Assembly: GCA_964012805.1 (NCBI GenBank)
Contig: CAXGUD010000005.1
Location: forward strand, 32,001-96,000
DNA length: 64,000 bases
Source: an uncultured Bacteriovoracaceae bacterium
GTDB lineage: Bacteria; Bdellovibrionota; Bacteriovoracia; Bacteriovoracales; Bacteriovoracaceae
Direction of reading: 5' to 3'
This document shows, piece after piece, positions 6,170 to 50,978 of this stretch. Position 1 is the first letter of the stretch. Every line of letters starts with the position of its first letter. Position numbers and translations under genes: made by a program. The notes beneath the pieces are model-generated. The model was not told the DNA's origin. It ran no database searches and saw nothing but the letters and a program-made list of their open reading frames with translations.

Positions 6170-6964
6170 TTATTTATAGAAGCCAAAAGCACCATACCCT
6201 ACTACTTGGTTCTTGTCTCCAGCTGTATCTCCAGAATTTCTTAAATCAAGAGTTTTTGCTGTAAGTTCAGAACGCTTTGCAAAATCTAAAAGCCCTCTTA
6301 AAGAATAGTAACCACATGCAAAATCGGGGTGTAACTTTTCATGACTGAACTCTTCTATAATTTCACTTGTTTTTTTATCAACTCTACAAGCAATTTCGTA
6401 AGAATGAAAATGACTTAAATCACTGCTGACGATTGGATAAACGTTAGGCTTAGAAATAAAATCATCAAACAATGAAGAAACAAAACCAAAATCAATATTC
6501 CCTACAACAAGTGGAATAATTTTTACTTTAGGCCCAAAAACCTGCCATATGAAAGGAAGCTGGACTTCAAGTCCATGCTCCATATCAAAAGCTTGATCTA
6601 GGATTTGAATTTCTTTATAAGTCTTAAGAAAATATTTCCTTAAAGAATCATCTATTTTAAGAGGACCAAAAGGAGTTAAAAACCCATCGCCGGAATGAAT
6701 TGCAATTCCCTTCACATGGTACCTATGAGCTGGGCTTAGAACAATAACAGTTTCTATCCGATTTTTCAGATCAAGAAGAGCTTTATAAGCCGTTCCTGCA
6801 ATTGGCCCAGAATATATATAACCAGCATGTGGGGCCACAATAATTTGAGGTGGAACCTCAAGAGGTCCTTCTGCTTTTAAGAAATTAAATATTTGAACCT
6901 CAAGCTCTTTTGGGTTTTCTGAATAAAATAGGCCCGCTACATCAGTTTTTTTAAAAGCCCCCAA
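6170..6964 (-). CDS. amrB: AmmeMemoRadiSam system protein B (MEMO1-like)
   Basis: VAGLFY, PHAGYIYSG, EHGLEVQLPF, SSDLSHF, NSGD..G...VVGY; TTG start after GAGGAG. Confidence 0.9.
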   Translation of the reverse strand: MGAFKKTDVAGLFYSENPKELEVQIFNFLKAEGPLEVPPQIIVAPHAGYIYSGPIAGTAYKALLDLKNRIETVIVLSPAHRYHVKGIAIHSGDGFLTPFGPLKIDDSLRKYFLKTYKEIQILDQAFDMEHGLEVQLPFIWQVFGPKVKIIPLVVGNIDFGFVSSLFDDFISKPNVYPIVSSDLSHFHSYEIACRVDKKTSEIIEEFSHEKLHPDFACGYYSLRGLLDFAKRSELTAKTLDLRNSGDTAGDKNQVVGYGAFGFYK

Positions 6965-7151
6965 TTTAACTCCTCAAAAATAAATAAATTTAAACTCTTT
7001 CCATTATATCAAAAAAATATTAAGTGGGCCCAAAGGGATTAATTACTTAGGGTGGTTTGAACAAAAAAAGGGCCCTAACTTATTGTAATTCATGACAAAA
7101 AACACAACCAAATCAAAACAAGTTAAAATTAATTTTAGATGTAGTGCTACA

Positions 7152-8261
7152 ATGAAATACAAACATATAGAAATACAGGATCTAAATTTGAGTGTTGTTT
7201 CCACAAAGTACTGGCATAAATTACCAACAGGTAAAATCCAATGTGATCTATGTCCGAGAAACTGCAAGCTTGGAGAAGGACAAAAAGGCTTATGCTACGT
7301 AAGAGAAAGGTCTAATGATGAAGTTGTTTTGACGACTTATGGCCGTTCAAGTGGTTTTTGTATAGACCCCATTGAAAAAAAACCACTCAACCACTTTCTG
7401 CCTGGCACAGCAATCTTAAGCTTCGGAACCGCTGGCTGTAACCTTGCTTGTAAATTTTGCCAAAATTGGGATATTTCAAAATCAAGAGAGATGGACACAC
7501 TTTCAAGTGAAGCCTCCCCAGAAGATATAGCTTCAACCGCCAGTAAACTAGGCGCAAAAAGTATCGCATTCACATACAACGACCCTGTTATTTTTTTAGA
7601 GTATGCAAAGGACTGCGCAATAGCAGCAAAAGAAAAAAACTTAAAGAGTGTTGCAGTAACTGCTGGCTACATAAACCCTAAAGCAAGGGAAGATTTTTTC
7701 TCTTTTATAGATGCTGCAAATGTAGATCTAAAAGCATTCACCCAAAGTTTTTACAAAAAAATATGTGGTGGTGATCTATCCCCAATTTTAGAAACTTTAA
7801 TATACCTAAAAAAAGAAACTAATGTCTGGTTTGAAATAACAACATTATTAATTCCAGGGGAAAACGACTCAGAAAAAGAAATAGAGGAAGAAACACAATG
7901 GATTATTGATAACTTAGGCCCTAATGTACCTATCCACTTTACTTCTTTCCACCCAGATTACAAAATGAGGGACAAGAAAAACACAAGTCTTCAAGCATTA
8001 AAAAATGCCAGAAAAATAGCGAAAAAAAATGGCATAAATCATGTATATACTGGAAATATTCACGATGAAGAGGGTTCCAGTACTTATTGCCCTAATTGCA
8101 AAAACAAAGTCATTGGAAGAGATTGGTTTAAATTAAGTAATTGGGAATTAAAAGTGTCAGGAAATTGCAAATATTGTGAAACAAAAATTGAAGGCTTATT
8201 CGAAGATAGGCCGGGGGAATGGGGACCAAAAAGGCTTCCTGTTTATGATATTAAATCCTAA
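7152..8261 (+). CDS. amrS: AmmeMemoRadiSam system radical SAM enzyme
   Basis: CDLCPRNC, DPIEKKPLNHF, GCNLACKFCQNW (CxxxCxxC), C-terminal CxxC pairs; start 7152 preferred over 7092. Confidence 0.92.
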   Translation: MKYKHIEIQDLNLSVVSTKYWHKLPTGKIQCDLCPRNCKLGEGQKGLCYVRERSNDEVVLTTYGRSSGFCIDPIEKKPLNHFLPGTAILSFGTAGCNLACKFCQNWDISKSREMDTLSSEASPEDIASTASKLGAKSIAFTYNDPVIFLEYAKDCAIAAKEKNLKSVAVTAGYINPKAREDFFSFIDAANVDLKAFTQSFYKKICGGDLSPILETLIYLKKETNVWFEITTLLIPGENDSEKEIEEETQWIIDNLGPNVPIHFTSFHPDYKMRDKKNTSLQALKNARKIAKKNGINHVYTGNIHDEEGSSTYCPNCKNKVIGRDWFKLSNWELKVSGNCKYCETKIEGLFEDRPGEWGPKRLPVYDIKS

Positions 8262-11391: not shown

Positions 11392-12195
11392 ATGTACGAT
11401 TCAAAACCATTATCAAACAATCGTGTTTTTATATATCACCTGTTGAAAAGAATGCTAAGATTTAATTGCCCCATGTCTGGTACTTTTCATTTCGATGTAA
11501 CAGATCTATACAATAAAATCAATGATCTTAAAAAAGAAGGATATTCAATTGGTTTAGTATCCTGCTTAGTTAAAGCAACAAGCTTATCTATAGAAAAATT
11601 TCCACGCATGAACAATAGGATATTCCATACATTGCTAGGAAAAAAAGAAGTTAGTTATGACTCCATAAATTGCGGTTTAGCCGCGACTAGAATTGACCCT
11701 CTAGGAGAGGAAGTAATTATTCCTATAATACTAAGAGGATCTAACAAATTATCGATTCAAGAAATTCACAATCAAATTAAAGAAAACAAAACATTACCTG
11801 TCGAAAAGCTTGAATCATATGAGTGGCTTCAAAAATCGAGAAGGCTACCTCGTTTTTTGATTCCGTTTGTCCATTATCTTTTTAGATCGAACCCCAAATT
11901 TTCTGCTAAAAACTCAAGTACTTATGCAATCTCATCAATTATGGAAAAAGACTCATCTCTAGTGAGCTCTCATTCGCCTGCAAATCAAACGACCTTTTTC
12001 CCTATAAGTTTAAAGGATCAGGCAATGGTACACAATGGTGAAGTGAAACCTAGAAAAGTTTTGGCAGTAACATTTTGCGTAGATCACTTTTTAGTTGATG
12101 GAATGGATGTTCAAAGATGCGGTAATTATTTAAAAAACTTTTTGGAAAACCCAAAAAATCTACTCAAAGAGTTTAATTTAGAAAAAACAAGTTAA
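11392..12195 (+). CDS. Stand-alone 2-oxoacid dehydrogenase E2-type acyltransferase catalytic domain
   Basis: C-terminal VDHFLVDG (DHRxxDG-like) motif; no lipoyl domain. Confidence 0.72.
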   Translation: MYDSKPLSNNRVFIYHLLKRMLRFNCPMSGTFHFDVTDLYNKINDLKKEGYSIGLVSCLVKATSLSIEKFPRMNNRIFHTLLGKKEVSYDSINCGLAATRIDPLGEEVIIPIILRGSNKLSIQEIHNQIKENKTLPVEKLESYEWLQKSRRLPRFLIPFVHYLFRSNPKFSAKNSSTYAISSIMEKDSSLVSSHSPANQTTFFPISLKDQAMVHNGEVKPRKVLAVTFCVDHFLVDGMDVQRCGNYLKNFLENPKNLLKEFNLEKTS

Positions 12196-12202
12196 GGTAT
12201 CT

Positions 12203-13558
12203 ATGAAAAATAATCATTACCCACCTGGGCCTAAGGGTCAATTTTTACTAGGATCAATAAAGGATTATAAAAAAGATGTTTTAAGTTTTTTTTTAAAAAT
12301 TACAGAAAAGTATGGCGACCTAGTTTCTTTTAATCTAGGTCCAAGAAAAGCTTTTTTAACCAAAGACCCTTATCTGGCAGAGCATATTTTAAAAACAAAA
12401 AGTAAAATTTATTCGAAAGATACCCCTGGTGTACAAAGGGTTAAAGAAGTTCTTCCTACGGGACTTCTGACTACATGGGATGAGGAATGGAGACGGCAAA
12501 GAAGAATTTCACAGCAAGCGTTCAGAAAAAACAAGATTGAATTTTTTGTAAGTCACTTTTTAAAATCAGCTGAATCAACAAAGTCTATTTTTGAAAATAA
12601 TTTGAAAAATAAAAATGAAATAAATATCACTTTTTCAATGATGAGGAATACTCTTCAATCAGCATTATCAACAATGTTTACAGATGGTGCGCAAGAGAAT
12701 TCAGAGGAAATCATTCGTGATTTTGGTATTTTAAATGAATTAACAAATTTAAAGATACCGCGTGCTTTTAATTTTCCTTTATGGTTTCCAACACCTGAAA
12801 ACATAAAATTAAACAAGGCGAACAAAAACCTTCATTTTATTCTAAATCAATTAATAAAAAAAAGACGAAACACAGAAAAAAATTACCCTGACCTCCTCAA
12901 CTTTTTAATGAATGCAATTGATGAAGATAGCGGAAAAGGATTTACCGACGAAGAATTAAGATATCAACTTTTAACAATTCTTATTGGTGGGGTAGATACC
13001 AGTGCAAATACACTTTCTTTTGCTTGGTTTCTAGCTGCATCTAATAGAGATATTCAAGAAAAGCTAAAGATTGAAGCACAAAAAGCTTTTAAAAAAGGTT
13101 TAAAAGATATCGAAATATTATCTCACTTGCCATATACCTCTATGTTCATCAATGAAGTTGTTAGACTCTACCCACCTGTTCCTATATTTGGGAGAACAGC
13201 ACTCAAAGAAGACTCCTGGGGTAAATATAAAATACCAAAAGGGATGCTAGTTATTACCAGTCCCTATGTTATTCATAGAAACCCAACATATTGGAACGAG
13301 CCAAATAAGTTTGATCCTGAAAGACACACAAAAGAAAAAATGAGGCAAATGCCTCCATTTTGCTTTTTCCCTTATGGTGGTGGTCCAAGAATTTGTATTG
13401 GTATGGGATACGCTAAGATACAGCTTCCTTTGACGATAGCAAGCTTAGTAAAGGACTTTGAATTTATAATAAATGATGGTGAGAAACTAGAATTAAAACC
13501 GTCAATTACGCTTAGTACAAAGAAACCAATCCTACTAAAAATAAGAAAAAGAAAATAA
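12203..13558 (+). CDS. Cytochrome P450
   Basis: PPGP N-terminus, GGVDTS I-helix, EVVR, PERH, FPYGGGPRICIG heme motif. Confidence 0.95.
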   Translation: MKNNHYPPGPKGQFLLGSIKDYKKDVLSFFLKITEKYGDLVSFNLGPRKAFLTKDPYLAEHILKTKSKIYSKDTPGVQRVKEVLPTGLLTTWDEEWRRQRRISQQAFRKNKIEFFVSHFLKSAESTKSIFENNLKNKNEINITFSMMRNTLQSALSTMFTDGAQENSEEIIRDFGILNELTNLKIPRAFNFPLWFPTPENIKLNKANKNLHFILNQLIKKRRNTEKNYPDLLNFLMNAIDEDSGKGFTDEELRYQLLTILIGGVDTSANTLSFAWFLAASNRDIQEKLKIEAQKAFKKGLKDIEILSHLPYTSMFINEVVRLYPPVPIFGRTALKEDSWGKYKIPKGMLVITSPYVIHRNPTYWNEPNKFDPERHTKEKMRQMPPFCFFPYGGGPRICIGMGYAKIQLPLTIASLVKDFEFIINDGEKLELKPSITLSTKKPILLKIRKRK

Positions 13559-13567
13559 ATTCCTTTC

Positions 13568-14737
13568 CTAAATAGTCTTATGAAACACTTTATTTCCGTA
13601 TTTTTTTAGAAAATTGGATCTTAAAGTTAATCCAAAGTTTTTATGGCCTTCAAAAGTTTCGGCCTTACCTCCTCGCCTAAACCGAATTTTTTCCTTAGAA
13701 ATATCCTTTTTTAGAAGAAGTGTTCCTGCTGACCCTTCTAATGCTATGGGGTTTATACAGTAACCTAAAAATCGTCCTACCATTGATAAGATAGCTGTTT
13801 CTCCTACCTGGGCACCTAACTGGTATCCTATATTGTTTTTTTTTGCTAAATCCGCGATTTGCAAAGAATTATAAATACCTCCGTTTTTTGAAATCCTTAT
13901 ATTAAAAAGGTCGAAATATTTATTTTCGATAATTAAATTTGCGTCTTTTAAATTACATAATGATTCATCAGCCATTAAGGGAATTTCCCTTTGCTTGAAA
14001 TCAGAAACAATTTCATTATGTTTTTCTTTTTGAAAAGGCTGTTCTATCCATTTAACTTTATATTTTTTAAAAAAAGGAAGGTTATACTTAAATGATTTGT
14101 AATCATAAATACTATTACCATCAATTCTAATTTCAATATCGTTACCTAATATATTTCGTATCATATTTAATCTTTCATCATCATCCTTCCCATTGGTTTT
14201 TACTTTTACTTGGTTAAAGTTCGAAAATTTAACTAACAATAAGACTATTTTAAGATATTTAAGTGGAATAAAAGGTAGTATGCAACTATAACTAATCGAT
14301 TTATTAAATGGTAATATGTCTGACAAACATTTTTCTTTCTCTTGTAAAAAAAGGTCCAGAAGAGATAATTCAGAAGCGCATCTTATACTATGAAAAGTTT
14401 GTTTTTGATTTGGACTAAAATCAATGTTATTTAAATAAGCCTCATTAATTTGATTGAGAAAGCGTTCCTCTGATATAGATTCGACCTCATTTAAAATATC
14501 TTTTCTCTGAGTAATATGAGGAAAAACATTGTCTTTAAAAAAGTCTGTGGAAGACTCTAAAGTTTCGCCTGTTACATATACTCTGGGTAGACCTTCACCG
14601 ACACCAATTTTTCCATCATCAGTTTTCAATACCAGAAGAAAGGAGTCAGATGTTTTTCTTTTAGCTGCGCCATGACCAAAACTGAAATTGAAAGGAATTT
14701 CCATTTGATAAAGAGATATTTCATTTATTATAGACAT
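13568..14737 (-). CDS. Enolase-superfamily (MLE/dipeptide epimerase subgroup) enzyme
   Basis: GVGEGLPR.YVTGE, KVK, metal ligands in RIDGN / IEQP / ADES, NIRISKNGG, GAQVGE. Confidence 0.85.
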   Translation of the reverse strand: MSIINEISLYQMEIPFNFSFGHGAAKRKTSDSFLLVLKTDDGKIGVGEGLPRVYVTGETLESSTDFFKDNVFPHITQRKDILNEVESISEERFLNQINEAYLNNIDFSPNQKQTFHSIRCASELSLLDLFLQEKEKCLSDILPFNKSISYSCILPFIPLKYLKIVLLLVKFSNFNQVKVKTNGKDDDERLNMIRNILGNDIEIRIDGNSIYDYKSFKYNLPFFKKYKVKWIEQPFQKEKHNEIVSDFKQREIPLMADESLCNLKDANLIIENKYFDLFNIRISKNGGIYNSLQIADLAKKNNIGYQLGAQVGETAILSMVGRFLGYCINPIALEGSAGTLLLKKDISKEKIRFRRGGKAETFEGHKNFGLTLRSNFLKKYGNKVFHKTI

Positions 14738-14790
14738 ATAATTATTATCGTAGAGTTAGATTAAAAAGAAAAATGAAAAGGAGTGGAACT

Positions 14791-15654
14791 TTGAAAAGTT
14801 CAGACCTTATCCAAATTTTTTTACCATTTTCAGTATGCCTTATAATGTTTGGAATTGGGCTTTCTCTTGATTTTTCTAATTTTAAGAAGGTATTTGAAAG
14901 ACCAAAAGCATTTCTTATTGGACTAATACTACAAAATTTATTTCTCCCAATTTTAGCAACAACGATAGCTTTATCAGGTCTACCGGACTCAAATACTCTG
15001 GCTTTAGGACTTCTTGTTTTAGGATTATGTCCAGGAGGATCAACATCTAATATCTTCACGTACGTATTTAAGGGAGATGTTGCTCTTTCAATATCTCTTA
15101 CTTGTGCTTCAAGTATTTTGTCTCCAATCACTATTCCTTTCTTTTTTAATTTTTTATCAAAAAACTTTTTCAGCAGTGGACAAGATTATGCTTTGGATAT
15201 TACAAGAACATCTTTAATTTTAATCGGATTTACAATTATTCCAGTAATAATAGGTATTTTTGTTAAAAAAGGATTTCGAGATTTTTCAGAAAAGTTAGAA
15301 AAGGCGATGAGTAAAATATCTATTATTTTCCTATCAATTATAATCTTAGGAATTTTCAAACAGAATAGTGATAATATACTTGGATTTATAAAAGCATCAG
15401 GTCCTTCGATATTGACCTTAAACTTTTCGGCAATATTTATAAGTTATCTCATTTCAAAATCCATGAAGATGAAAAATGATAAAATCTTAACAATTGGTCT
15501 AGAGGTGGGAATTCAAAACGGTGCTTTAGCATTATTCATTACAAATAGCCTTTTACAAAGCTGGGAAATGAGCATTGTGCCGGGTTCATATGGTATACTG
15601 ATGTACTTATCAGGTACTGCTTACGGCTTATTTATAAGAAGAAGAGAAAAGTAA
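14791..15654 (+). CDS. Bile acid:Na+ symporter (BASS) family transporter
   Basis: MFGIGLSL, CPGGSTSN, GDVALSI, EVGIQNG; TTG at 14791 follows AGGAG (ORF track starts 14773). Confidence 0.9.
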   Translation: MKSSDLIQIFLPFSVCLIMFGIGLSLDFSNFKKVFERPKAFLIGLILQNLFLPILATTIALSGLPDSNTLALGLLVLGLCPGGSTSNIFTYVFKGDVALSISLTCASSILSPITIPFFFNFLSKNFFSSGQDYALDITRTSLILIGFTIIPVIIGIFVKKGFRDFSEKLEKAMSKISIIFLSIIILGIFKQNSDNILGFIKASGPSILTLNFSAIFISYLISKSMKMKNDKILTIGLEVGIQNGALALFITNSLLQSWEMSIVPGSYGILMYLSGTAYGLFIRRREK

Positions 15655-15655
15655 T

Positions 15656-16774
15656 ATGGAAACAATATATAAAAAAGTAATTATTATAGGTGCCGGTCCA
15701 GCTGGATTGGCAACAAGTAAAGTATTAAATGATTATAAAATTGATCATTTAATTCTGGAAAAAGGTGAGGAAATTGCAACTAGCTGGAGGATATTTTATG
15801 ATAGCCTCACTTTGCATACAGGTAAGCACCTTTCACACTTAACTGGAATGAAATTTAAAAAGGAAGTAGATCTCTTTCCACCTAAAAATCAATTTATTGA
15901 CTATATGGAGGATTATAAAAATCATTTTAAGCTTCCTATACAGACATCATCCGAGGTCAAAAAAATTAAAAGAATTGAAGAAGATAACAAATGGAGGCTA
16001 ATTTTAGATAGTAAAATATTTGAATGTGACTGTTTAGTTTTAGGAGTAGGTCTTGCGAGTTTCCCTTTTATTCCTATCATTAAAGGACTAGAAGAATTTA
16101 AAGGTGAAGTAATTCACAGTATAAAATATAAAAATCCTCATTTGTATAAAAATAAAAATGTTTTAATAGTTGGAGCTGGAAATTCAGCCGCTGAAATTTC
16201 ATATGAGCTTTCAGAAGAAGGTATCGATACTACCATATATATTAAAAATGGCGCCAACATAGCTCCCTTATCGGTTCTTGGCCTTCCAATACAATATATA
16301 GGTTATATTATGTCGATTTTTCCAAAAAAATTTCAACTAGCCCTAATCAAAGCAGGAAACTTTTTTATTGACTTTTTAAGTGGTGGTCCTTTTATACCAA
16401 GACCTAGCTATAGTCCTTTGGATCGACCTCCAATTATAGGGAAAAAGTTTTTAAAATCTCTAAAAAAGGGCTCTATTAAATACCAAAGAAAAATAAATGC
16501 CTATAAAGAAAATGGCGTTATACTAGAAAATCAAAAATTTAAAAAAATAGATACAATAATACTCGCCACTGGTTTTAAAGTTAATTTTGATATTTTTGAA
16601 GTAAAAATAGAGACCGATGAGAAAGGTTTTGCTAAAAGGAAGGACAGAGTTGAAGATTTTATTTTTTCTAATCTATTCTATGTAGGTCAAAATTATGACT
16701 CAACTGGAGGACTTGTTAATATTAGAAAAGACTCCCAAATAATTGGTGAAAAAATTAAAAATTTCTTTAAATAA
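15656..16774 (+). CDS. Flavin-containing monooxygenase (class B, YUCCA/FMO-like)
   Basis: GAGPAG, W..YDSL.LHT, FKGEVIHSIKY (FxGxxxHxxxY), GAGNSA, ATGF. Confidence 0.88.
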   Translation: METIYKKVIIIGAGPAGLATSKVLNDYKIDHLILEKGEEIATSWRIFYDSLTLHTGKHLSHLTGMKFKKEVDLFPPKNQFIDYMEDYKNHFKLPIQTSSEVKKIKRIEEDNKWRLILDSKIFECDCLVLGVGLASFPFIPIIKGLEEFKGEVIHSIKYKNPHLYKNKNVLIVGAGNSAAEISYELSEEGIDTTIYIKNGANIAPLSVLGLPIQYIGYIMSIFPKKFQLALIKAGNFFIDFLSGGPFIPRPSYSPLDRPPIIGKKFLKSLKKGSIKYQRKINAYKENGVILENQKFKKIDTIILATGFKVNFDIFEVKIETDEKGFAKRKDRVEDFIFSNLFYVGQNYDSTGGLVNIRKDSQIIGEKIKNFFK

Positions 16775-16778
16775 GCAT

Positions 16779-19454
16779 TTATGCCTTTTTCTTTTCACCT
16801 ACTTCGTCCAAGCTCTCGGAGTAGTCATTGATTTGAAACTCTAAATCATTTTTATACTGAAGAAGATTTGGTTTAAATTGAGCCTCTCTTTGTTTTTTAA
16901 CTTCAATGTAAAAATTTTTCATTTCTTCATAAGTATTCTTCTTTAAAAGAAACACTTGGGTTGGTTTTAATCTTCCACTTTTCCTTTTAGCATCATATTC
17001 AACATTTATATTAGATAAATGTTCATCTAAATTTTCAGAAAAAACTTTTAAATGTCTTCTGAATTCTTCTCTCGAATTGCTAGAAGGCTCAATGAATAGT
17101 TCATAATTTGAATCCTTTTCATTAGCTATCATTAAGAAAAACTTAGAATTTAATTTCATTTCACTCTCAGTAGCAGACATGGCATCGATTAGTTGTCCCT
17201 CATAGATTTTTTCTCCAGTTATATTAGTCACTCCTCTTCCCTTTTGGATAAATTTAATTCTTGGTGTTTTATTTTTGAATCCTTCAACTCTTATAACATC
17301 ATTCATGAAGTATCGATAAAGACCATATCCAGTTGTTACAAAAATATAATATTCTTTTCTATCTTTAAGTTCATCTATAAGAAGAAAGTTTCTATCACCA
17401 TTATCATATAAATCTCTTTCAATAAATTCGTAAAAGTTATCTAAAATCGTTGGAATACCTGTGGTTTTCGATGAAGTTAAAGGGATTGTCCCTCTGAATT
17501 CACTTGATAAATAACCTGCATCTCTAATTAACATTTTTTCAGGGAACTGACCTTTTAAATGACCTAAAGCGGTTCCGCAGCTTCCTCCTGTCCAAGTAGC
17601 AAGTATCTGTAGATTAGGAAAGATGTGAAGCAGTTTAATCCCTCCATTTTCTTTAAAAATTTTATCTAATCTCTCCGCTTTAACCGGATTGTAGGAATAA
17701 AGAGGTTGTAAAGCTTTTTTTACATCATCTTCAAGGTCGTCATCCCTAAAAAACGTTCCTTCCTTCAAATCAATAAAATATTCATTCCAATACTCATTTA
17801 CTAGATCCAAAATTCTGATAAAAGTTGATGGGTTAGCTGAACCTAAAAAAGTTATATCGTCATGACAAAGTATAAGTCTTATAATGGTTTGATACTTCAG
17901 CAAATTGTTCTCAATATATGCTACCTCTCCAGGAATAACATACTTTTTCTTTGCTATTTTAGGAGCATGATCTTTGACAAACCCTGATGCTGAACCATAA
18001 GGTATATTGGACTTTCTATGCCCTTCAATACTGGCCCCCATTATGGCCATTATTTTGCCACTTATAACCTCATCTCTTTCCATAATTTGAGAATAAGCTT
18101 GAATTAACTGACTTCTTTTAAACGATTCAATAGTTCTTTTTAGAACTGGTATAAATTTTGGAGAACCAGTACTTCCACTTGTTACAGCATATATGATAGG
18201 AGCCTCGGCGTTTATATGGGGCTCTCCTGTCTCATCCTGTTTATCAATAAATGGTCTTAATGATTCATAATCTTGAGGTGGAACATTATTTCTAAAATCT
18301 TCAATTGATTTAATTTTATTAAAATTATGCTCTCGCCCGAAAAAAGTTTCCTTTTGAAATTCAAGAATGCTTAAAAGAACTTTTTCCTGGTTTTCTCTTG
18401 GGTTATGGCAAGCATTAACAAGCTTCCTATAATGGTATGAGCCCACGATTAAAACTTTACTCTTCATAGCGAAGTTTATAATCTTATGTCCAATATTTTC
18501 TAATATTTCATACGATGTTGGGACTGGAACCTCTTTCAAATCTATTTTAGAAATAAAAGGCGCCTTTAATTGAGTTAAATATTCTTTGGGAAAGTTACGA
18601 TTCCTAAGACCGATTTCCCCTACAGATCGATTTTTAGGTAAAAACCATGTTCCAAAAATTACATCCCAAATAATCAGGTTATTTCCGTAATTACCATTAG
18701 ATTCTCTTGGAATCTCTGAGTGATGCCATCTATGAAGCTCAGAGCTGCTAATAATATAATTAAGAATACCAAACTTAACATTTATGTTTGAATGCTGAAA
18801 AAAACCATTAATACCATAAAAGACCAAATAAGTTGTTAATACAGCTTCATTCATACCAATTAGTAGGAAAATAAGCGTATCAGGTATAAATTGAATAATC
18901 TTTTCTAATGGGTGAAATCTTCCTGAATTAAACCAATAAAGTACTTCCGAACTATGATGAACAGAATGCAACTTCCATAAAAATCTTTTTGTATGCGCCA
19001 TTCTGTGAACCCAATAACGAAAAAACTCATTGCACACCATCATTAAAATAACTTGGAACCATATCGGGGAATGGTGTGGCCAAAAACGTGTAAAAGACTC
19101 CCACCTATACTCAGTAACGATAGACGTTACCAACGTATAAAATAAAGGAACAAATAGAAACTCTAAGATCCTAGGTAAAATAAGTTGAGTTACACCCATA
19201 TGTAAAAAGTCTGTCTTCACATCATTTTTTATATTTTGCCATTCTTTTCTATAAGGATAAGCAAATTCAAAAAAGGTAATGACAAGGGAGGCAAACATAA
19301 GTGAGCACATTGCCGATATGTATGAGTGAACTTGATTTTCTATCAAGAAATTAAAAAATAAAAAACCTGATAAGAGTGTTCCTGGGTAAATTAAATAAGG
19401 AAAAATAGAATGAAATAAGCTTAAAGAATAATTAGCCGAAGGACTAGACTTCAT
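16779..19454 (-). CDS. Fusion: N-terminal sterol desaturase/fatty acid hydroxylase plus C-terminal GH3-family acyl-adenylate/amido synthetase
   Basis: N-terminal TM helices with HRMAH, HSVHH, FQHSN, HRWHH; C-terminal TSGSTGSPKFIP, GYLSSE, GLYRYFMND, TGEKI; single uninterrupted 891-aa ORF. Confidence 0.85.
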   Translation of the reverse strand: MKSSPSANYSLSLFHSIFPYLIYPGTLLSGFLFFNFLIENQVHSYISAMCSLMFASLVITFFEFAYPYRKEWQNIKNDVKTDFLHMGVTQLILPRILEFLFVPLFYTLVTSIVTEYRWESFTRFWPHHSPIWFQVILMMVCNEFFRYWVHRMAHTKRFLWKLHSVHHSSEVLYWFNSGRFHPLEKIIQFIPDTLIFLLIGMNEAVLTTYLVFYGINGFFQHSNINVKFGILNYIISSSELHRWHHSEIPRESNGNYGNNLIIWDVIFGTWFLPKNRSVGEIGLRNRNFPKEYLTQLKAPFISKIDLKEVPVPTSYEILENIGHKIINFAMKSKVLIVGSYHYRKLVNACHNPRENQEKVLLSILEFQKETFFGREHNFNKIKSIEDFRNNVPPQDYESLRPFIDKQDETGEPHINAEAPIIYAVTSGSTGSPKFIPVLKRTIESFKRSQLIQAYSQIMERDEVISGKIMAIMGASIEGHRKSNIPYGSASGFVKDHAPKIAKKKYVIPGEVAYIENNLLKYQTIIRLILCHDDITFLGSANPSTFIRILDLVNEYWNEYFIDLKEGTFFRDDDLEDDVKKALQPLYSYNPVKAERLDKIFKENGGIKLLHIFPNLQILATWTGGSCGTALGHLKGQFPEKMLIRDAGYLSSEFRGTIPLTSSKTTGIPTILDNFYEFIERDLYDNGDRNFLLIDELKDRKEYYIFVTTGYGLYRYFMNDVIRVEGFKNKTPRIKFIQKGRGVTNITGEKIYEGQLIDAMSATESEMKLNSKFFLMIANEKDSNYELFIEPSSNSREEFRRHLKVFSENLDEHLSNINVEYDAKRKSGRLKPTQVFLLKKNTYEEMKNFYIEVKKQREAQFKPNLLQYKNDLEFQINDYSESLDEVGEKKKA

Positions 19455-19699: not shown

Positions 19700-20143
19700 A
19701 TGATAAACATAATTTACTATATACTTCTCTGGTTTATTACAATCGTTTTTTTAGGCAGAGTCTTAGCGCAAGTTTTTGTAGGCATATACTCACCTCCTTA
19801 TCTACCCAAGATGGAGATGTGGTATTCGGGTCTGATGCCTTATCCAATTCTTTTAACCTATCAAATTTTTATTTATACTTGTATGATTATTTTTAATTTT
19901 TGTTTATATATGGGTAGAGGTCCCTTATTTTTAATTTTGAATGGAAAAACATCAATCTATTATATATATTTTGGTTCGGTATATTTCACTCTAATGATTA
20001 TTCGCTTTATAATACATAAAATAAAAGAACCTGAGATAACTTGGCCAAGGGGTAGTATTCCCATTTTTTTCCACTTTTTTTTAGCAGTCTACATTATTCT
20101 TTTAGGCAGTTATTCTTATTTTAAAGTCATAATAATCTCTTGA
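19700..20143 (+). CDS. Small multi-pass membrane protein, unknown function
   Basis: About 4 hydrophobic segments; WYSGLMPYP..L and GSIPIFFH motifs. Confidence 0.7.
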   Translation: MINIIYYILLWFITIVFLGRVLAQVFVGIYSPPYLPKMEMWYSGLMPYPILLTYQIFIYTCMIIFNFCLYMGRGPLFLILNGKTSIYYIYFGSVYFTLMIIRFIIHKIKEPEITWPRGSIPIFFHFFLAVYIILLGSYSYFKVIIIS

Positions 20144-27713: not shown

Positions 27714-28538
27714 TTAGCCCTTTCTAAGAAGCACAAGGTTTTTCTTCTTTCTTAAAATATTGAATAAAGGGGTTTTAAAAACCTGGTGCCTGAATCCATC
27801 CATAAAACCTAAACTATCTTTAATTTTCAACCTGGGCTCGTATTTACAAAACTCTTCCGGAGAAGATGCCCCCCATGTAAAGTTGACATCAAATTGCTCC
27901 ATAACCGGCATCATCCACTCTTTTTTTATTAAAAAAGGAGACATAAAATCCAAAATAAGAGAGTAATGTGAAAAATATTTATTTAAAATTGAAAAAAACT
28001 TTTTAATCTTTTCCTCATCGAGATACATTGTTAATCCTTCAATAATGATAATAGGATCATTGACTCCTTTAAAATTTAATGGCCAAGACTCATCTAGAAT
28101 ATCAAAGGCGGTCATCTTATTTTCTAAACTCTCCTCAAAAAAAAGCTTCCTCACTTCAATGACTTGGGGAAGATCACAATCAAACCATTTTTGAAATTGA
28201 AATTTTTCCCTCATTCTTTCAAAGCGCGTGTCAAGACCACAGGCCAGGTTAATAACTGTAGAACCCTCTTCTCTTTCCAGAATCTCTTTTTTTAGTAAGT
28301 AATCAATCCCCTTCGTCCGCAAGATAATTCCTTTTTTTAAAAGAAAAAAAAGATGTGTTTTTTTTATAGGGTCATTTATCAATCTATAAATAGTTTCAAT
28401 ATATGAGTCAGAATAGGAAAGACTGGGGTCAATTGATGCTTCGAATTTTGCTTTTAAAGTTAAAAGAAGAGTTTTTGGAACCTTCTCCAAATGAGTCACA
28501 TCAACTTTATTTTTATTCTCCGATTTTAACGGTGCCAT
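27714..28538 (-). CDS. Class I SAM methyltransferase (LCM/TcmP-like O-methyltransferase family)
   Basis: VPKTLLLTL, VINLACGLDTRF, DLPQVIEVRK, IIIEGLTMYL. Confidence 0.85.
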   Translation of the reverse strand: MAPLKSENKNKVDVTHLEKVPKTLLLTLKAKFEASIDPSLSYSDSYIETIYRLINDPIKKTHLFFLLKKGIILRTKGIDYLLKKEILEREEGSTVINLACGLDTRFERMREKFQFQKWFDCDLPQVIEVRKLFFEESLENKMTAFDILDESWPLNFKGVNDPIIIIEGLTMYLDEEKIKKFFSILNKYFSHYSLILDFMSPFLIKKEWMMPVMEQFDVNFTWGASSPEEFCKYEPRLKIKDSLGFMDGFRHQVFKTPLFNILRKKKNLVLLRKG

Positions 28539-29641: not shown

Positions 29642-29751
29642 GGCCAATTTTTGAAAAAACGTTGTCTAAACGGAACAACACAACAAGTCATTTAGACCCA
29701 CCTTCCCATTCCATAATTTCTTAAGATGGAAAGACAGGTCCAAAATTGGCC
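29642..29751 (-). other. Structured intergenic element (closing stem plus two hairpins)
   Basis: GGCCAATTTT/AAAATTGGCC ends; inner GTCTAAA/TTTAGAC and TTCCAT/ATGGAA stems. Confidence 0.4.
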
Positions 29752-31637
29752 TAGTAAATGGCAATATCTTTTTTAATAGGAACTAATGAAGTTCCGGAGA
29801 TTTTTAGGTTCATCATGGTCGCAGGACTTTTTGCAGAATCACCCTTCACGTCTTTTGTTAAGAACAGAATTGTTTTAAAGGTAAACCGGTTTTTAATTAA
29901 CCCCTCTCCAAATTTAGCAAAGGATTTAACAAAGGACTTATAATCTAGCTTATTTTTATGCTGATACATTTCTCTTAATCCATTATAGGCTTTTTCCATG
30001 GCCTGTTTCGTTTGAGTTGTCTTCTTTTTTTGACAAGTCAATCTTCTATTCATGCATACATCTAGGTATTTCCAATCTCCATCAAAAAACTGCTTAGCAT
30101 CGGTCATCCCTAAATTAACAAACTGATTCTTAGATAATTTTTGCGCCATATTCATCAAGTGATCTGTAGCAAGGTTTGATATTCTTAAATCCAACTCAAT
30201 TTGAATAGTCCCTAACTTAATTTTATCGGGAATATTTATTTTAAGTTGGTTCTGAAAACCAATTTTTCTCTCTAGATACTTAAGTTCTTTTTTCAGCTTT
30301 TTTCCATCAACCTTGTTTCTGATATAAACGTATTTGTAACTTCCAGAATATCTCCTCATCACAGGATCATTTGAATTAGGGTCTATTGGAGCGACTTTTT
30401 GATAATTGCCGCTAAACATTCTTGTTCTTTGAGCATTTTTACTAAGCCATCCACCTGTTTCATACTCTTTATTATAAACTCCAAGCAATGTTGTTCCTAT
30501 AGTGTCTTCATCGAGGTGTTTACTATTTGAAACAGAAAAACTCTGACCTTTGCTGTAATTGGAACTAATTAAAAAAGGAATGCTTACGCCAACCGATTTA
30601 GATCTTGTTTTAGTTTTCGTTTTTGTTTCATCAATTTGCCGAATTCCAAAAGATTTAGCATTACCTAGAGCTGCAGCAACATTAGCAGGGACCAGGTTTC
30701 CCGCTAAAAATTCCTTATAAATACTTAATGCATCTAGATCGACCGTGATGCCTTCCCAAGGCTTCATTCCCTTTGCAGGAAAAAACTTAACTTTCGCCTT
30801 CTTTTTCGCATCTAAATCAAAATGATAGGTCCAACTTTTGGCCTTATCAACCATCTTAGAATAAGCAGCTCCTGCGACCATAACAGAGGCATTAACATTC
30901 CAACCCTTTCCCTTGGCCCTCTCCATCGTAACTTCTACATCATAGGGTGCTTTTGATTTATCTAATTTTTTTACACCAATATTAAAAGTACTCGACCCCA
31001 TAAGAGTTGCCCCAACTGCTGCTGGGCCAAATCCAGCTCCTGCAGCAAAAGCAATATCCTTAGTGGAAGTCCAGCTTAAAAAATCTTCTTCATGCCATTT
31101 ACTTAAATCTTGTTTACTTCTTGGTATTTTTGGCTTTGGAAGGTTTTTAGCATTTCTAAAGTCCTTAATCCAACGGCTGGCAACAATATTCCTCCCATAT
31201 GTTCCCGTAAGAGTTAAAGTCGCAGCCGGAAGTAACATACCACTTCCAAAAATGGCACTCGTTAACCCACCTCCTATATTCCAGTTTTTATGCTGGATTA
31301 CTCTATAGCCTGCTCTATTATTTTTTAACCTCATAACTCCATCAGCGTCCCTAACCATATTTTCTGGCTTCAAGGCTTCTGGTTTTGGGTCAACAGCAAT
31401 AATCCTTTTAAAAATATTGAGTGAGCCAGTCACGTTGGGCCATACACCAAAGCCGTGCGTCCCCATCATACTGTCAGTCTTTTCCAAAGGAAAAGGAAAA
31501 TTGTGAGTTAAGGACCCATCTGGCTGAATAACAATTTGAGCTGGAAGCCAGAAATCAGCACTAAAAGATTTAACTGAAAGTAAAAGAAAACTCGTTAGAG
31601 CTACAATGAACTTCTTTAGAAAAGGTTTCTTCGTCAT
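29751..31637 (-). CDS. Secreted hypothetical protein, 628 aa
   Basis: Signal peptide ending in ..VKSFSA; GAGGTG RBS; no family recognised. Confidence 0.75.
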   Translation of the reverse strand: MTKKPFLKKFIVALTSFLLLSVKSFSADFWLPAQIVIQPDGSLTHNFPFPLEKTDSMMGTHGFGVWPNVTGSLNIFKRIIAVDPKPEALKPENMVRDADGVMRLKNNRAGYRVIQHKNWNIGGGLTSAIFGSGMLLPAATLTLTGTYGRNIVASRWIKDFRNAKNLPKPKIPRSKQDLSKWHEEDFLSWTSTKDIAFAAGAGFGPAAVGATLMGSSTFNIGVKKLDKSKAPYDVEVTMERAKGKGWNVNASVMVAGAAYSKMVDKAKSWTYHFDLDAKKKAKVKFFPAKGMKPWEGITVDLDALSIYKEFLAGNLVPANVAAALGNAKSFGIRQIDETKTKTKTRSKSVGVSIPFLISSNYSKGQSFSVSNSKHLDEDTIGTTLLGVYNKEYETGGWLSKNAQRTRMFSGNYQKVAPIDPNSNDPVMRRYSGSYKYVYIRNKVDGKKLKKELKYLERKIGFQNQLKINIPDKIKLGTIQIELDLRISNLATDHLMNMAQKLSKNQFVNLGMTDAKQFFDGDWKYLDVCMNRRLTCQKKKTTQTKQAMEKAYNGLREMYQHKNKLDYKSFVKSFAKFGEGLIKNRFTFKTILFLTKDVKGDSAKSPATMMNLKISGTSLVPIKKDIAIY

Positions 31638-31942: not shown

Positions 31943-32680
31943 ATGTATTTAACAGTTTTAATTTTCTTAATAATTCACTGGTATCTATCTCTTTTTTGCC
32001 AAAGTTTTTTTCTCCATAGATACGCTGCACATAGAATGTTCAAGATGAACTCTTTTTTTGAAAAGTTTTTTTATATTTTAACTTTTATTTCTCAAGGTCC
32101 CTCGTTCTTAAATCCTTCTGCCTACGCAGAAATGCACAGAAGACACCACTCCTATAGTGATACAGAAAAAGATCCTCACTCACCTCATTTTCATAACTCT
32201 CTTTCCTCCTTAATGAAAAAGACATACTCGGAATATATGTCCCTATTAGACGAAAACTTTGTCTTTAAAAAAATTAATCATACCCCTAAGTGGACTTTTT
32301 TAGACAGACTTGCAGACTCTTGGTTTACTAGAATCACTTGGATTCTTATTTACACAGCTCTTTACCTTCACTTTAGTAACCTCTGGTTGGCCCTCATTTG
32401 TGTTCCGATACACTCCCTAATGGGACCAATTCATGGTGCAATTGTTAACTGGTGTGGGCATAAATACGGTTATAGAAACTTTGATTTAGGAGACAAATCT
32501 AAAAATACTCTCTTTCTTGATTTTCTTATGATGGGGGAACTTTACCAAAATAACCATCACCATCACCCTCAAAAGCTTAACTTTGCTATCCGCTGGTTTG
32601 AAAAAGACCCTGTCTATATGATGGCCAAAATAATGGAAAAACTTCGTGTAATTAAAATAAAGGAGTCCCAAACATGTTAG
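31943..32680 (+). CDS. Acyl-CoA / fatty acid desaturase (delta-9-like)
   Basis: HRYAAH, HRRHH..SD...DPHSP, GELYQNNHH. Confidence 0.9.
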   Translation: MYLTVLIFLIIHWYLSLFCQSFFLHRYAAHRMFKMNSFFEKFFYILTFISQGPSFLNPSAYAEMHRRHHSYSDTEKDPHSPHFHNSLSSLMKKTYSEYMSLLDENFVFKKINHTPKWTFLDRLADSWFTRITWILIYTALYLHFSNLWLALICVPIHSLMGPIHGAIVNWCGHKYGYRNFDLGDKSKNTLFLDFLMMGELYQNNHHHHPQKLNFAIRWFEKDPVYMMAKIMEKLRVIKIKESQTC

Positions 32681-33696
32681 GAAATTACCTTTTAGAAAAA
32701 AACCTCTTACCAGACTCTCTCATAAAATGGAAAATTAAAGGCCTTTTGGGACAAAGACTAAAAGACGAAAACCAGGGAAGTATTGAAAAAAATAGTATCC
32801 ACTTAAAAAAACTCTGCTCAGAGTTATCATCAGGACCAATAGCAGAGCAAGTTCAAGCGGCCAATGAGCAACACTATGAAGTTCCAACGGAGTTTTATAA
32901 AAAAGTCTTAGGGAAACATTTAAAGTATAGTTGCTGCCTCTGGAATAAGGCAAAAAGTCTTGACGAAGCAGAATTAGAAATGCTCGAAGCCTATGCGGAA
33001 AGAGCGGAACTAAAAAATGGTCAAACTATTCTCGACCTAGGTTGCGGCTGGGGTTCTCTAAGTCTTTTTCTTGCAAAAAAATATCCAGATTCAAAAATTA
33101 TCAGTGTATCAAACTCATCAACTCAAAAAGCTTATATAGACTCAGAAATAGAAAAAAGGAAATTACATAATTTAAATGTCATCACCCAAAATATAAATAA
33201 CTTCCAAACAGACATTCAATTCGACAGAGTTCTCTCTATTGAAATGTTTGAACATATGAGAAATTATAAAGAGCTACTTGGTAAGGTTTCATCTTTTTTA
33301 AAAAATGATGGTAAATTATTTGTCCATATTTTTGTACATAAAGATTATACCTACTATTTTGATGTAAAAGATGAAACAGATTGGATGAGCCGATACTTTT
33401 TCAGTGGTGGAATTATGCCAAGTGAACATCTTCTCTATTATTTCAATGAACATTTAAAAATTGAAAAAACCTGGACGGTTTCTGGTGAGCACTACAAAAA
33501 AACCTCTTATGGCTGGCTGGATAATATGGATGCCAATAAAGATGAAATACTAAAATTATTCAAAAAATGTTATGGCGAAGGTCAAGAAAAAAAATGGTTT
33601 AGCTATTGGAGGGTTTTCTTCTTATCATGTGCAGAATTGTGGGGGTTTGAAGATGGTAACGAGTGGTATGTAGGGCACTACCTTTTAAAAAAATAA
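32674..33696 (+). CDS. CFA-synthase-like SAM methyltransferase (coclaurine N-methyltransferase-like clade)
   Basis: ANEQHYEVP, LKYSCC, LDLGCGWGS, SIEMFEHMRN, FFSGGIMPS, CAELWG. Confidence 0.88.
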   Translation: MLGNYLLEKNLLPDSLIKWKIKGLLGQRLKDENQGSIEKNSIHLKKLCSELSSGPIAEQVQAANEQHYEVPTEFYKKVLGKHLKYSCCLWNKAKSLDEAELEMLEAYAERAELKNGQTILDLGCGWGSLSLFLAKKYPDSKIISVSNSSTQKAYIDSEIEKRKLHNLNVITQNINNFQTDIQFDRVLSIEMFEHMRNYKELLGKVSSFLKNDGKLFVHIFVHKDYTYYFDVKDETDWMSRYFFSGGIMPSEHLLYYFNEHLKIEKTWTVSGEHYKKTSYGWLDNMDANKDEILKLFKKCYGEGQEKKWFSYWRVFFLSCAELWGFEDGNEWYVGHYLLKK

Positions 33697-33716
33697 TTAA
33701 ATGATAAGAGGGAAAA

Positions 33717-34976
33717 ATGAAACAAAAAATGGCGGTCATAGGCACTGGTATCGCAGGAATGTCGGCAGCATACTTTCTTCATAAAGATTATGATCTCACT
33801 GTTTTTGAAAAAAAAGACTATATAGGTGGGCATTCAAATACAATTGATGTAAAAAAACCAGAGGAGGCATCTTTTGATACAGGCTTTATGGTTTTTAATT
33901 TTGAAACATATCCTAACCTTGTAAAGCTTTTTAAAAAATTGGATGTGAAAATAAAAAAAAGCGATATGAGCTTTAGTGTCCAAAATAAGACAAAGGGCCT
34001 GGAATATTCAGGATCAAGTCTTAACCACCTTTTTTCTCAACGAAAAAACCTTCTTAATCCCTCCTACTATAAGTTTCTAATGGAGATTAATAGGTTTAAT
34101 CAAAATGCTCCTAAATTACTTGAAGGTACTCGCAATGAATACTTAACAATAGGAGAATACATTGAAAACGAACGGTATTCTTCATCTTTTCTTGAAGATT
34201 ACCTGATCCCGATGAGTTCTGCCGTTTGGTCCACCCCCCCAAATAAAATGCTGAATTTTCCAGTTACAACTTTAGTACAATTCTTTTTTAACCATGGTTT
34301 TTTGGGATTAAACACACAACACCAATGGTATACAGTTGATGGAGGTAGCAGGAATTATTGCAAAAAATTAACAAAACCATTTGCCGAAAAGATTCACATT
34401 AACTCTGCTGTTAGAGGCGTTTTTAAGGAAAAAGATGGAAGTGTGAGTATTCAAACAGATGATGGAAAACAAATTTTTGACAAAGTTGTCTTGGCCTGCC
34501 ATGGTGATGAGGCTTTAAGAATGCTTCAAAATCCGACTGAACAACAACTGAAAATATTAACTTCTTTTCGATATGAAAAAAATAGGGCAACCGTTCACAC
34601 AGATACCTCATTGATGCCATCAAAAAAAATGGCCTGGTCAAGTTGGAATTATATTTTTAGAAAAGTCGATAATGAAATAAGCGCCTCAACCGTTTACTAT
34701 ATGAATAAACTTCAAGGAGTTTCAAATAAAAATCATTTTTTTATTTCAATTAATGGTGAACAAGAAATTGATCAAGATAAAATATTAAAAGTAATAGATT
34801 ATGATCACCCTCTTTTTGATATCGAGGCAATAAAAGCTCAGAAGCTCCTCCCTAGCTTGAATAATGATACCTCCATCTACTTTACTGGTAGTTATTTTAG
34901 ATATGGGTTTCATGAAGATGCGTTACTCTCCTCCGTGAATCTATGTGAGTCCATACTAAAGCGGAGTGTCATTTGA
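33717..34976 (+). CDS. FAD-dependent oxidoreductase (COG2907 / UfaD-like)
   Basis: GTGIAG, GGHSNT, DTGFMVFN..TYPN, MSFSV, WSSWNY, YGFHED. Confidence 0.88.
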   Translation: MKQKMAVIGTGIAGMSAAYFLHKDYDLTVFEKKDYIGGHSNTIDVKKPEEASFDTGFMVFNFETYPNLVKLFKKLDVKIKKSDMSFSVQNKTKGLEYSGSSLNHLFSQRKNLLNPSYYKFLMEINRFNQNAPKLLEGTRNEYLTIGEYIENERYSSSFLEDYLIPMSSAVWSTPPNKMLNFPVTTLVQFFFNHGFLGLNTQHQWYTVDGGSRNYCKKLTKPFAEKIHINSAVRGVFKEKDGSVSIQTDDGKQIFDKVVLACHGDEALRMLQNPTEQQLKILTSFRYEKNRATVHTDTSLMPSKKMAWSSWNYIFRKVDNEISASTVYYMNKLQGVSNKNHFFISINGEQEIDQDKILKVIDYDHPLFDIEAIKAQKLLPSLNNDTSIYFTGSYFRYGFHEDALLSSVNLCESILKRSVI

Positions 34977-35731
34977 AGTCTAAAATATTTATAGGAAAAG
35001 TTCACCATATCAGGACTCGTCCTATTAAATATTCACTTTCTCTAAAACACTTTATGTTTTTTTTAGACTTAGATGACTTAGAAAGCCTTGATAATTTTTT
35101 TCCTTTACTCAGTTATAAAAGAAAAGGAATTTTTAATTTCAATAAAAAGGACCACTATATTTTTAACAAAAAAAATTTAAAAGATCATTTCAAAGACATA
35201 ACAAAAAAGGATATTCATAAAATATTTTTTCTAACAAATCTTAGGATATTTGGTTATGTATTTAATCCCATTAGTGTCTTTTTTTGTTTTGATAAAAACA
35301 AGAAGCTTTCTTCTGTTATTTATGAGGTTGGGAATACATTTAAAGAGCAAAAAATTTTCGATAAATCCATTGTAAAAAATAATAAAGCTTCGCTAAAAAC
35401 AAAAAAATTATTTTATGTCTCCCCATTTATTCCCTTAGATACAGTTTTTCATTTTTTTTCTCAAATAATTAGTGAAGAAAAAACTGAACAACTTTTTTTA
35501 AAAGTTGATAGTATTCAAAATGATTCTAAAATTCTCACAGCAACTTTTAGCTCAAAATCAAAAGAGATCAATTACAAGAATCTAATTTCTCTTATTTTTT
35601 CCTTTCCTTTTCAAACGCTGAGAATTATTTTCTTGATCCATTGGCATGCTTTTATACTTTGGTTTAAAAAATTGAAATATATAAAAAAGAATGAGAACAA
35701 AGATAAACAGACAGAGGTACTTTATGGATAA
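34973..35731 (+). CDS. DUF1365 family protein (UfaO-like)
   Basis: VHHIR..P, GYVFNPISVFFC, EVGNTF, FYVSPF, IHWHAF.LW.K. Confidence 0.88.
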   Translation: MKSKIFIGKVHHIRTRPIKYSLSLKHFMFFLDLDDLESLDNFFPLLSYKRKGIFNFNKKDHYIFNKKNLKDHFKDITKKDIHKIFFLTNLRIFGYVFNPISVFFCFDKNKKLSSVIYEVGNTFKEQKIFDKSIVKNNKASLKTKKLFYVSPFIPLDTVFHFFSQIISEEKTEQLFLKVDSIQNDSKILTATFSSKSKEINYKNLISLIFSFPFQTLRIIFLIHWHAFILWFKKLKYIKKNENKDKQTEVLYG

Positions 35732-50942: not shown

Positions 50943-50978
50943 ACAAATAACCTCTTTATAATCATTAAAATAAAAACT

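Follow-up and report, generated by a model that had tools for sequence, protein, structure and literature searches.

The question raised by this locus is whether a membrane di-iron hydroxylase and a GH3 amido synthetase, found in one open reading frame (ORF), form a genuine two-domain enzyme and, if so, what chemistry such a protein would serve. The locus lies in a stretch of 64,000 nucleotides (hereafter the window; positions 32,001 to 96,000 of contig CAXGUD010000005.1) from an uncultured Bacteriovoracaceae bacterium, where the FA_hydroxylase::GH3 fusion gene (P0001) occupies positions 16779..19454 of the minus strand as a single stop-free ORF of 891 aa, with homologues elsewhere. The fusion is a real membrane-anchored two-domain protein and not an artefact, and it represents one state of a larger gene cassette. 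As to its function, the reading adopted here, to which a probability of roughly 55% is given, is that the GH3 half would make an N-acyl amino acid and the membrane half would then oxidise the conjugate, yielding an oxidised N-acyl amino acid lipid.

An earlier note on this DNA had reported an 891-aa ORF with all the histidine boxes of sterol desaturases and the nucleotide motifs of GH3 enzymes, and Pfam and a motif check agree with that description. Pfam places FA_hydroxylase at residues 135-269 (E 7.5e-31), GH3 at 343-627 (1.9e-52), GH3_M at 673-738 and GH3_C at 754-865, while the His boxes (HRMAH150-154, HSVHH163-167, QH221 and HRWHH241-245) and the GH3 motifs (TSGSTG425, GYLSSE647 and YRYFMND713) are all present. 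The junction between the two halves (about 18405-18540) is crossed by contigs of three DNA runs, each run from a different study and all marine metagenomes (X2, 15862-19310; X3, 18388-18960; X6, 18195-18660), with no indel listed, and the ORF is also stop-free in two genomes of the same genus, at 91% and 74% identity. An assembly artefact or a read-through is ruled out by these spanning contigs together with the intact ORF in the same-genus genomes. Furthermore, the AlphaFold2 model (52 rows; predicted local distance difference score, pLDDT, 89.7; predicted template modelling score, pTM, 0.76) has the GH3 fold and a helix, residues 314-350 (18405..18515, minus strand), which runs continuously between the two domains. 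The first half of this linker is amphipathic, with a hydrophobic moment of up to 0.47, and by inspection the helix corresponds to the N-terminus of the GH3 proteins encoded by separate genes.

The architecture is widely conserved. A homologue search found 626 proteins, and in all 120 of those listed both PF04116 and PF03321 were present, mostly at 38-47% identity. In a 121-row alignment none of the 10 His positions varies in the rows covering it (117-121), nor does K433, E652, R714 or K749, and the Ser of motif I, S426, equivalent to the essential S115 of OlsH, is kept in 120 of the 121 rows; the inter-domain span measures 78 residues in 105/121 rows and 85, the value of the query, in five. 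Fused forms occur in at least nine named phyla (Pseudomonadota, Bacteroidota, Balneolota, Planctomycetota, Verrucomicrobiota, Gemmatimonadota, Spirochaetota, Calditrichota and Bdellovibrionota). When the best 80 of at least 732 hydroxylase-type stretches were taken and 78 loci counted, 41 were fused (contig-truncated ones and the frameshifted L018 included), 25 had both genes separate, 10 had GH3 only and two the hydroxylase only; the split hydroxylase and GH3 genes remain adjacent. On the GH3 tree the state switches between fused and separate at least 5-6 times, and within the phylum the distribution is patchy, the gene being found in 19 of 301 genomes. The GH3 tree, like that of the cassette membrane protein described below and the first hydroxylase tree, was made with FastTree, and the window branches are long and compositionally biased; the first GH3 tree left out L018 and two duplicates, L011 (of L002) and L012 (of L003), and domains under length limits were left out of all trees. 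It is proposed that fusion couples two steps conveniently, without being required. The fusion of the earlier note is no isolated oddity: the larger cassette to which it belongs also occurs in split form and comprises an enolase and a small membrane protein as well.

The N-terminal domain (residues 1-305; 18540..19454, minus strand) is a membrane di-iron His-box domain of an OlsE-like subfamily, as judged from Pfam, an OlsE alignment and a tree. Its PF04116 score (107.7 bits, the cut-off being 31) and its complete His boxes place it in the superfamily, to which sterol desaturases belong as well as fatty acid hydroxylases (PMC12971839). It aligns end to end with an over-cut-off OlsE (32% identity, 306 columns, E 2e-48), and cassette domains and OlsE fall in one subfamily (support 99/98) in a tree which left out five picks (four distant own-genome or failed ORFs, plus one further failed pick). 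On the OlsE profile, NF052566, the fusion scores 172.8 bits, or 175.7 bits when set beside a true OlsE at 541.4, against a cut-off of 475; orthology to OlsE is ruled out by this miss and by the separate clade. OlsE itself hydroxylates C4 of the ornithine head group in ornithine lipid (PMC12971839; PMC11631085). In the host's own genome, 100% complete, no match was found to PF13444, the family of OlsB/OlsF-type ornithine-lipid synthases. As a separate observation, the cyanobacterium Iphinoe carries a tandem pair of cassette-type hydroxylases (L048:9920-11854), GH3 being absent within 10 kb.

The C-terminal domain (residues 343-865; 16860..18428, minus strand) is a GH3 acyl-acid amido synthetase by Pfam, Foldseek and alignment, with GH3, GH3_M and GH3_C over cut-off, the GH3 fold and intact nucleotide motifs I-III. 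All 10 sequence matches in the PDB are plant GH3s, over residues ~343-861, and Foldseek matches the model to GH3 structures (E 2e-28; root-mean-square deviation 3.4 to 6e1q). Lys146 of AtGH3.12 has a role in Glu binding; the equivalent position, counted from the alignment, is mostly Ala or another uncharged residue in the cassette GH3s, which may be a weak hint against Asp or Glu as substrate. Among NCBIfam profiles, the best and only matches of the fusion are OlsE and OlsH, both aminolipid enzymes and both below cut-off; on the OlsH profile, NF052613, it scores 78.1 bits against a cut-off of 620, by which orthology to OlsH is ruled out. The statement of the earlier note that characterised GH3s are soluble plant enzymes has to be widened, since the bacterial OlsH has also been characterised. 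This enzyme joins free fatty acid to ornithine, with ATP and Mg, to give N-acyl-ornithine; it needs the Ser of motif I, prefers non-hydroxylated acids and works poorly on hydroxy-palmitate (PMC12493201). It was described in 2025 and is the sole characterised bacterial GH3 found in the literature covered; its authors expect other GH3 clades to make other N-acyl amino acids (PMC12493201), and the cassette GH3s are such another clade. OlsH shares an operon with the alpha/beta-hydrolase OlsI (and OlsG); no alpha/beta-hydrolase was found among the 13 proteins scanned from window positions 7092-28538. The host genome also contains a second, distant GH3 (G000:C33:740-4618; 529 aa, 24% identity), followed by two genes in the same direction. 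One of the two resembles by eye a Rieske oxygenase, so that this may be another GH3-plus-oxidase set.

The partners of the fusion can be defined from the loci counted above. A 389-aa enzyme of the enolase superfamily, MLE subgroup, is encoded at 13568..14737 (minus strand) in the window, with K178-x-K180, the ligands D206/E232/D257 and Arg281, and its gene is present in 69 of the 78 hydroxylase-type loci; four of the nine enolase-less loci end at a contig edge, and in L011 the enolase starts at the contig end. The second partner is a four-helix small membrane protein (SMP) with no Pfam family, here of 147 aa at 19700..20143 (plus strand) and thus divergent from the fusion, which occurs, at ~150 aa, in 41/78 loci. 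Three-way fusions also exist among the 120 homologues, five having SMP joined N-terminally and one the enolase. In the window, SMP and enolase are each the best or only match of their kind in the genome. SMP is predicted with confidence to be a four-helix bundle, in which the polar residues R20, Q24, Q55, R102 and H125 are invariant; a structure search gave as its best hit a Z of 7.8, to generic four-helix bundles, Foldseek gave no match at E<=0.001, and its Atlas matches are all hypothetical. Regarding the enolase, the two lysines expected of a racemase, at the ends of beta-2 and beta-6, are not both there: K180 is kept and beta-6 has R281, an Arg replacement shared by 142 of the 144 cassette enolases (66/67 of the hydroxylase type and 76/77 of the sister type described below). 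The beta-6 Lys is the second acid/base in racemisation and merely a cation-pi partner in the dehydration by o-succinylbenzoate synthase (bioRxiv 10.1101/2022.03.03.481873); therefore, one-base chemistry is likelier for these enolases, and a racemase reading is lowered.

Acyltransferase-fold genes recur beside the cassette. The window has, at 11392..12195 (plus strand), an accessory E2/CAT-like acyltransferase catalytic domain (PF00198) which keeps HxxxDG and whose homologues stand beside five other cassettes (L020, L120, L128/L131 and L133), followed at 12203..13558 (plus strand) by an accessory cytochrome P450 identified by Pfam scan, with homologues beside L020, L131 and L176. In fact, the cultured genus Gracilimonas offers one tight operon (L020), a co-directional run of P450, acyltransferase, fusion and enolase with gaps of 1, 5 and -4 bp; P450 and acyltransferase homologues also adjoin the cassette in L131, and the acyltransferase-P450-enolase order is kept in G002. 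Elsewhere, CocE/NonD is found in 14/78 loci, with no homologue in the host's own genome, and an alpha/beta-hydrolase (Hydrolase_4) follows GH3 and enolase in related Bdellovibrionota loci, being present in 4/4 of those tested as well as in L219. These recurrent neighbours would parallel the pairing of OlsH with OlsI. Between enolase and fusion lie an SBF-family symporter and a flavin monooxygenase (FMO; 14773..16774, plus strand, Pfam scan), which occur in this position only in the host genus and whose link to the pathway is unproven. As regards transcription, a promoter and terminator scan remained at chance level (36 vs 43.4 promoter-like and 7 vs 4.2 terminator-like matches). The gaps between opposite-strand genes are tiny: 9 bp between the converging P450 and enolase (13558-13568), 35 bp between the diverging enolase and SBF genes (14737-14773) and 4 bp between the converging FMO and fusion (16774-16779); with such packing there is hardly space for divergent promoters or for terminators, and the genes may form non-contiguous operons that are interleaved and overlap in antisense.

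A sister cassette puts these genes in a wider frame. The window enolase is ~30% identical to the usual cassette enolases and 37-40% identical to a sister group, whose surroundings were studied in metagenome loci aligning to it (the best 80 of at least 575); the hydroxylase-type cassette is called type A below and the sister one type B. Where there was room, GH3 lies downstream in 61/63 type B loci and SMP occurs in 14/32, and a heme-oxygenase-like di-iron oxidase (HDO, PF14518) lies upstream in 42/57, sharing one ORF with the enolase in 17 of these; 23 of the sister loci served to build the HDO profile, and Pfam confirmed the family in 4/4 tested. No cassette-type hydroxylase was found in the 80 sister loci, two of which have a distant one (36-37 bits), and HDO was found neither in the host's own genome nor in any of the 78 hydroxylase-type loci. 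Hydroxylase and HDO are mutually exclusive occupants of one slot in the sampled loci, which are phylogenetically non-independent. In L079 (Acidobacteriota), which lacks HDO, a hydroxylase nested within the cassette clade immediately precedes an enolase of the sister side, and the GH3 is of the sister side too. Moreover, ten Bdellovibrionota loci have GH3 without hydroxylase, with SMP in 0/10, SMP being absent wherever the hydroxylase is absent in the hydroxylase-type set. A hydroxylase homologue was undetectable in three of five such genomes (G027, G036 and G053; 93-94% complete), the other two having only distant ones; since GH3 and enolase persist in this way, they form the irreducible core. 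In sister cassettes without HDO, a ~455-aa protein with no Pfam family is encoded upstream of the enolase, as in L103 (6560-7933), L104, L114, L116 and L153, its Atlas matches being hypothetical and the weak leads pointing to lactonase/YncE-like families. Near HDO cassettes, a trifunctional MFS-acyltransferase-acyl-ACP synthetase (Aas-like) recurs (L154:1908-5309 and 16 other sister loci), mostly in one clade and therefore not as independent evidence.

The window appears to combine the two types. With matched loci and a careful tree, its GH3 groups with type A (100/99) and its enolase falls inside type B (99/99), while two controls from the same family, L219 and L220, take intermediate positions in either tree. 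On profiles built without it, the enolase reaches 344 bits for B vs 210 for A, and it carries the B state at 7/11 diagnostic positions, some of them ancestral states, and the A state at 0/11. SMP leans to B (97, FastTree; 113 vs 107 bits). Approximately unbiased (AU) tests reject a grouping of the window GH3 with the type B core (p 1e-9), but they still allow the enolase to be placed with type A (p 0.14), which counts against a hybrid, as does the long and compositionally biased enolase branch; the large enolase tree was made by a quick method only. The interpretation favoured from these comparisons, although not proven, is that the window would be a mosaic of a hydroxylase-type fusion and a sister-type enolase.

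The favoured pathway can be outlined as a series of steps. By analogy with OlsH and the plant GH3s, an acyl-adenylate would be formed and then an amide bond, from fatty acid, amino acid and ATP, and the amphipathic helix between the domains would keep the ligase close against the membrane. As in OlsE, the lipid-soluble conjugate would next undergo O2-dependent hydroxylation, probably on the head group; ligation is placed before oxidation because OlsE acts on the head group and OlsH prefers non-hydroxylated acids. The enolase, from a branch which binds N-acyl amino acids or dipeptides, would probably carry out a one-base elimination or cyclisation at the alpha-carbon of the carboxylate, not a racemisation. 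It need not wait for the hydroxylase, since it occurs with GH3 in hydroxylase-less genomes, and a role as dedicated dehydratase of the hydroxylated product is lowered by its presence with GH3 in G027, G036 and G053, where no hydroxylase match was found. Finally, a variable acyltransferase-fold partner (here E2/CAT-like, elsewhere an alpha/beta-hydrolase or CocE/NonD) may add a second acyl group.

Several points weigh against this pathway. OlsE lies outside the clade of the cassette hydroxylases (98/94), grouped with two unrelated hydroxylases, so that likeness to OlsE marks the subfamily and not the substrate; the GH3 half is as near to plant enzymes as to OlsH (AtGH3.12, 84.6 vs 78 bits, from different programs); the window cassette is rearranged, with SMP divergent and the enolase beyond the inverted SBF-FMO pair; the soluble oxidase of the sister cassette is as compatible with a product of higher water solubility as with a membrane lipid; and the assignment of substrate and product is a prediction from relatives. 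The product might instead be another oxidised conjugate, such as an N-acyl amino acid desaturated or oxidatively decarboxylated to a dehydro-amino acid or an enamide, or a conjugate of an aromatic or steroid-like acid, giving a small secreted metabolite. The slot filled by either a membrane His-box enzyme or a soluble HDO, with UndA/UndB as precedent (PMC11204201), the P450, FMO, SBF and RND genes adjacent in the window, and the equal distance of the GH3 half to plant GH3s and OlsH all speak for such a product. Nevertheless, it is to a hydroxylase that the N-terminal domain comes closest among characterised enzymes, the SBF-FMO neighbours belong to the host genus only, and the known route to N-acyl-dehydrotyrosine employs NasY, ThiF and a nitroreductase, GH3 and enolase being unmentioned in the part of PMC12479983 covered, so that this alternative is considered unlikely, if worth keeping in view.

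The earlier note had proposed a membrane-tethered bifunctional enzyme which oxidises a lipid acid and then conjugates it. The tethered two-domain protein stands, but the order is less likely: a membrane domain hydroxylating or desaturating the free acid before GH3 conjugates it, for instance to provide a hydroxyl for a second acyl chain, would agree with the fatty acid hydroxylases of the superfamily, and acyloxyacyl lipids do need a hydroxy-acyl chain, with acyltransferase partners at hand, yet the head-group activity of OlsE and the preference of OlsH run the other way, and the GH3 clade can apparently work without the hydroxylase, as in the three genomes with GH3 and enolase in which no homologue of it was detected. 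Oxidation first is accordingly rated improbable. Least probable of all is that the halves are chemically uncoupled in the host, the N-terminal domain being mainly a tether or acting on another lipid, or the scattered cassette being a relic; the broken gene order (divergent SMP, two genes between fusion and enolase), the repeated changes of state and the patchy occurrence in the phylum would fit this, but the His ligands are all invariant, the inter-domain span is constant in most rows, the split forms stay adjacent and genomes 74-91% identical retain the arrangement.

Beyond ligation followed by oxidation, a broader and clearly more speculative proposal may be entertained, namely that GH3 and the Arg-type enolase could be the core of one widespread, undescribed lipid pathway, in which two unrelated di-iron oxidases, the OlsE-like membrane enzyme and the soluble HDO, would oxidise a shared N-acyl amino acid in the same way, leading to a new lipid class of hydroxy-, dehydro- or decarboxylated N-acyl amino acids; the window would then be a natural swap, in which a hydroxylase-GH3 fusion works beside an enolase, an SMP, an acyltransferase and a P450 of the HDO-type cassette. 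If the two oxidases were interchangeable, a function would be assigned to a large orphan group of HDOs and to an enolase family which databases label epimerase or muconate cycloisomerase. Concerning precedence, the earlier note knew of no characterised example, and the full-text literature likewise yielded no functional description of a PF04116-PF03321 fusion or of the cassette, in a coverage which leaves subscription journals mostly outside; the supplements of PMC12493201 may list clade members. Among the listed matches citing PF03321 or PF04116, none cites both, and the covered part of the CO-ED domain-fusion preprint has 0 text matches for GH3.

Other genes of the window and of related loci deserve a brief record. 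LCM-type carboxyl methyltransferases recur beside the cassette (L130, L148, L221 and L026), and the window has one at 27714-28538, 8 kb off and 25-29% identical over part of its length, so that the link is weak. A lipid-modification operon extends over 31943-36974 (fatty acid desaturase, two cyclopropane-synthase-like methyltransferases, flavin oxidoreductase and DUF1365), and a mevalonate-pathway-like run over 46551-52100 (kinases, decarboxylase, HMG-CoA reductase and type 2 isopentenyl diphosphate isomerase), the latter judged on N-terminal sequences only. A Memo-like (AmmeMemo) protein and a radical SAM gene are divergently arranged at 6170-8261, and a 628-aa ORF at 29751-31637 (minus strand) has a signal-peptide-like start and no Pfam match.

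When the system is compared with known ones, the plant GH3s (AtGH3.12/PBS3, GH3.15 and JAR1) share the fold and the motifs, but they are only about 19-21% identical, soluble and single-domain, with hormones as substrates. The N-acylamino acid racemases and dipeptide epimerases (2p88, 3jva and 1jpm) are the closest solved sequences to the enolase and have the same KxK and three metal ligands, whereas the catalytic beta-6 Lys that MLE-subgroup racemases and epimerases use for two-base racemisation is Arg in the cassette enolases. Of these structures, 2p88 is an N-succinyl-Arg/Lys racemase. UndA and UndB, an HDO and a FADS-like membrane enzyme, provide two scaffolds, soluble and membrane His-box di-iron, for the same conversion of fatty acids to alkenes; they belong to different subfamilies and have no GH3 or enolase partner, so that the likeness is an analogy only (PMC11204201). 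OlsH (Sinac_1599) of Singulisphaera acidiphila, with OlsI/OlsG, shares the three nucleotide motifs and an acyltransferase-fold partner nearby, but is a soluble single-domain protein of 526 aa, while the window GH3 is fused to a hydroxylase and accompanied by enolase and SMP; the covered text of PMC12493201 has 0 matches for fused, fusion, hydroxylase, desaturase or enolase. OlsE of Rhizobium tropici and Agrobacterium belongs to the same His-box subfamily and aligns over its full length at 32% identity, whereas the window domain lies below the OlsE cut-off, in its own clade, fused or adjacent to GH3. The fusion would be likely to resemble OlsH and OlsE combined in its working, as a member of neither family.

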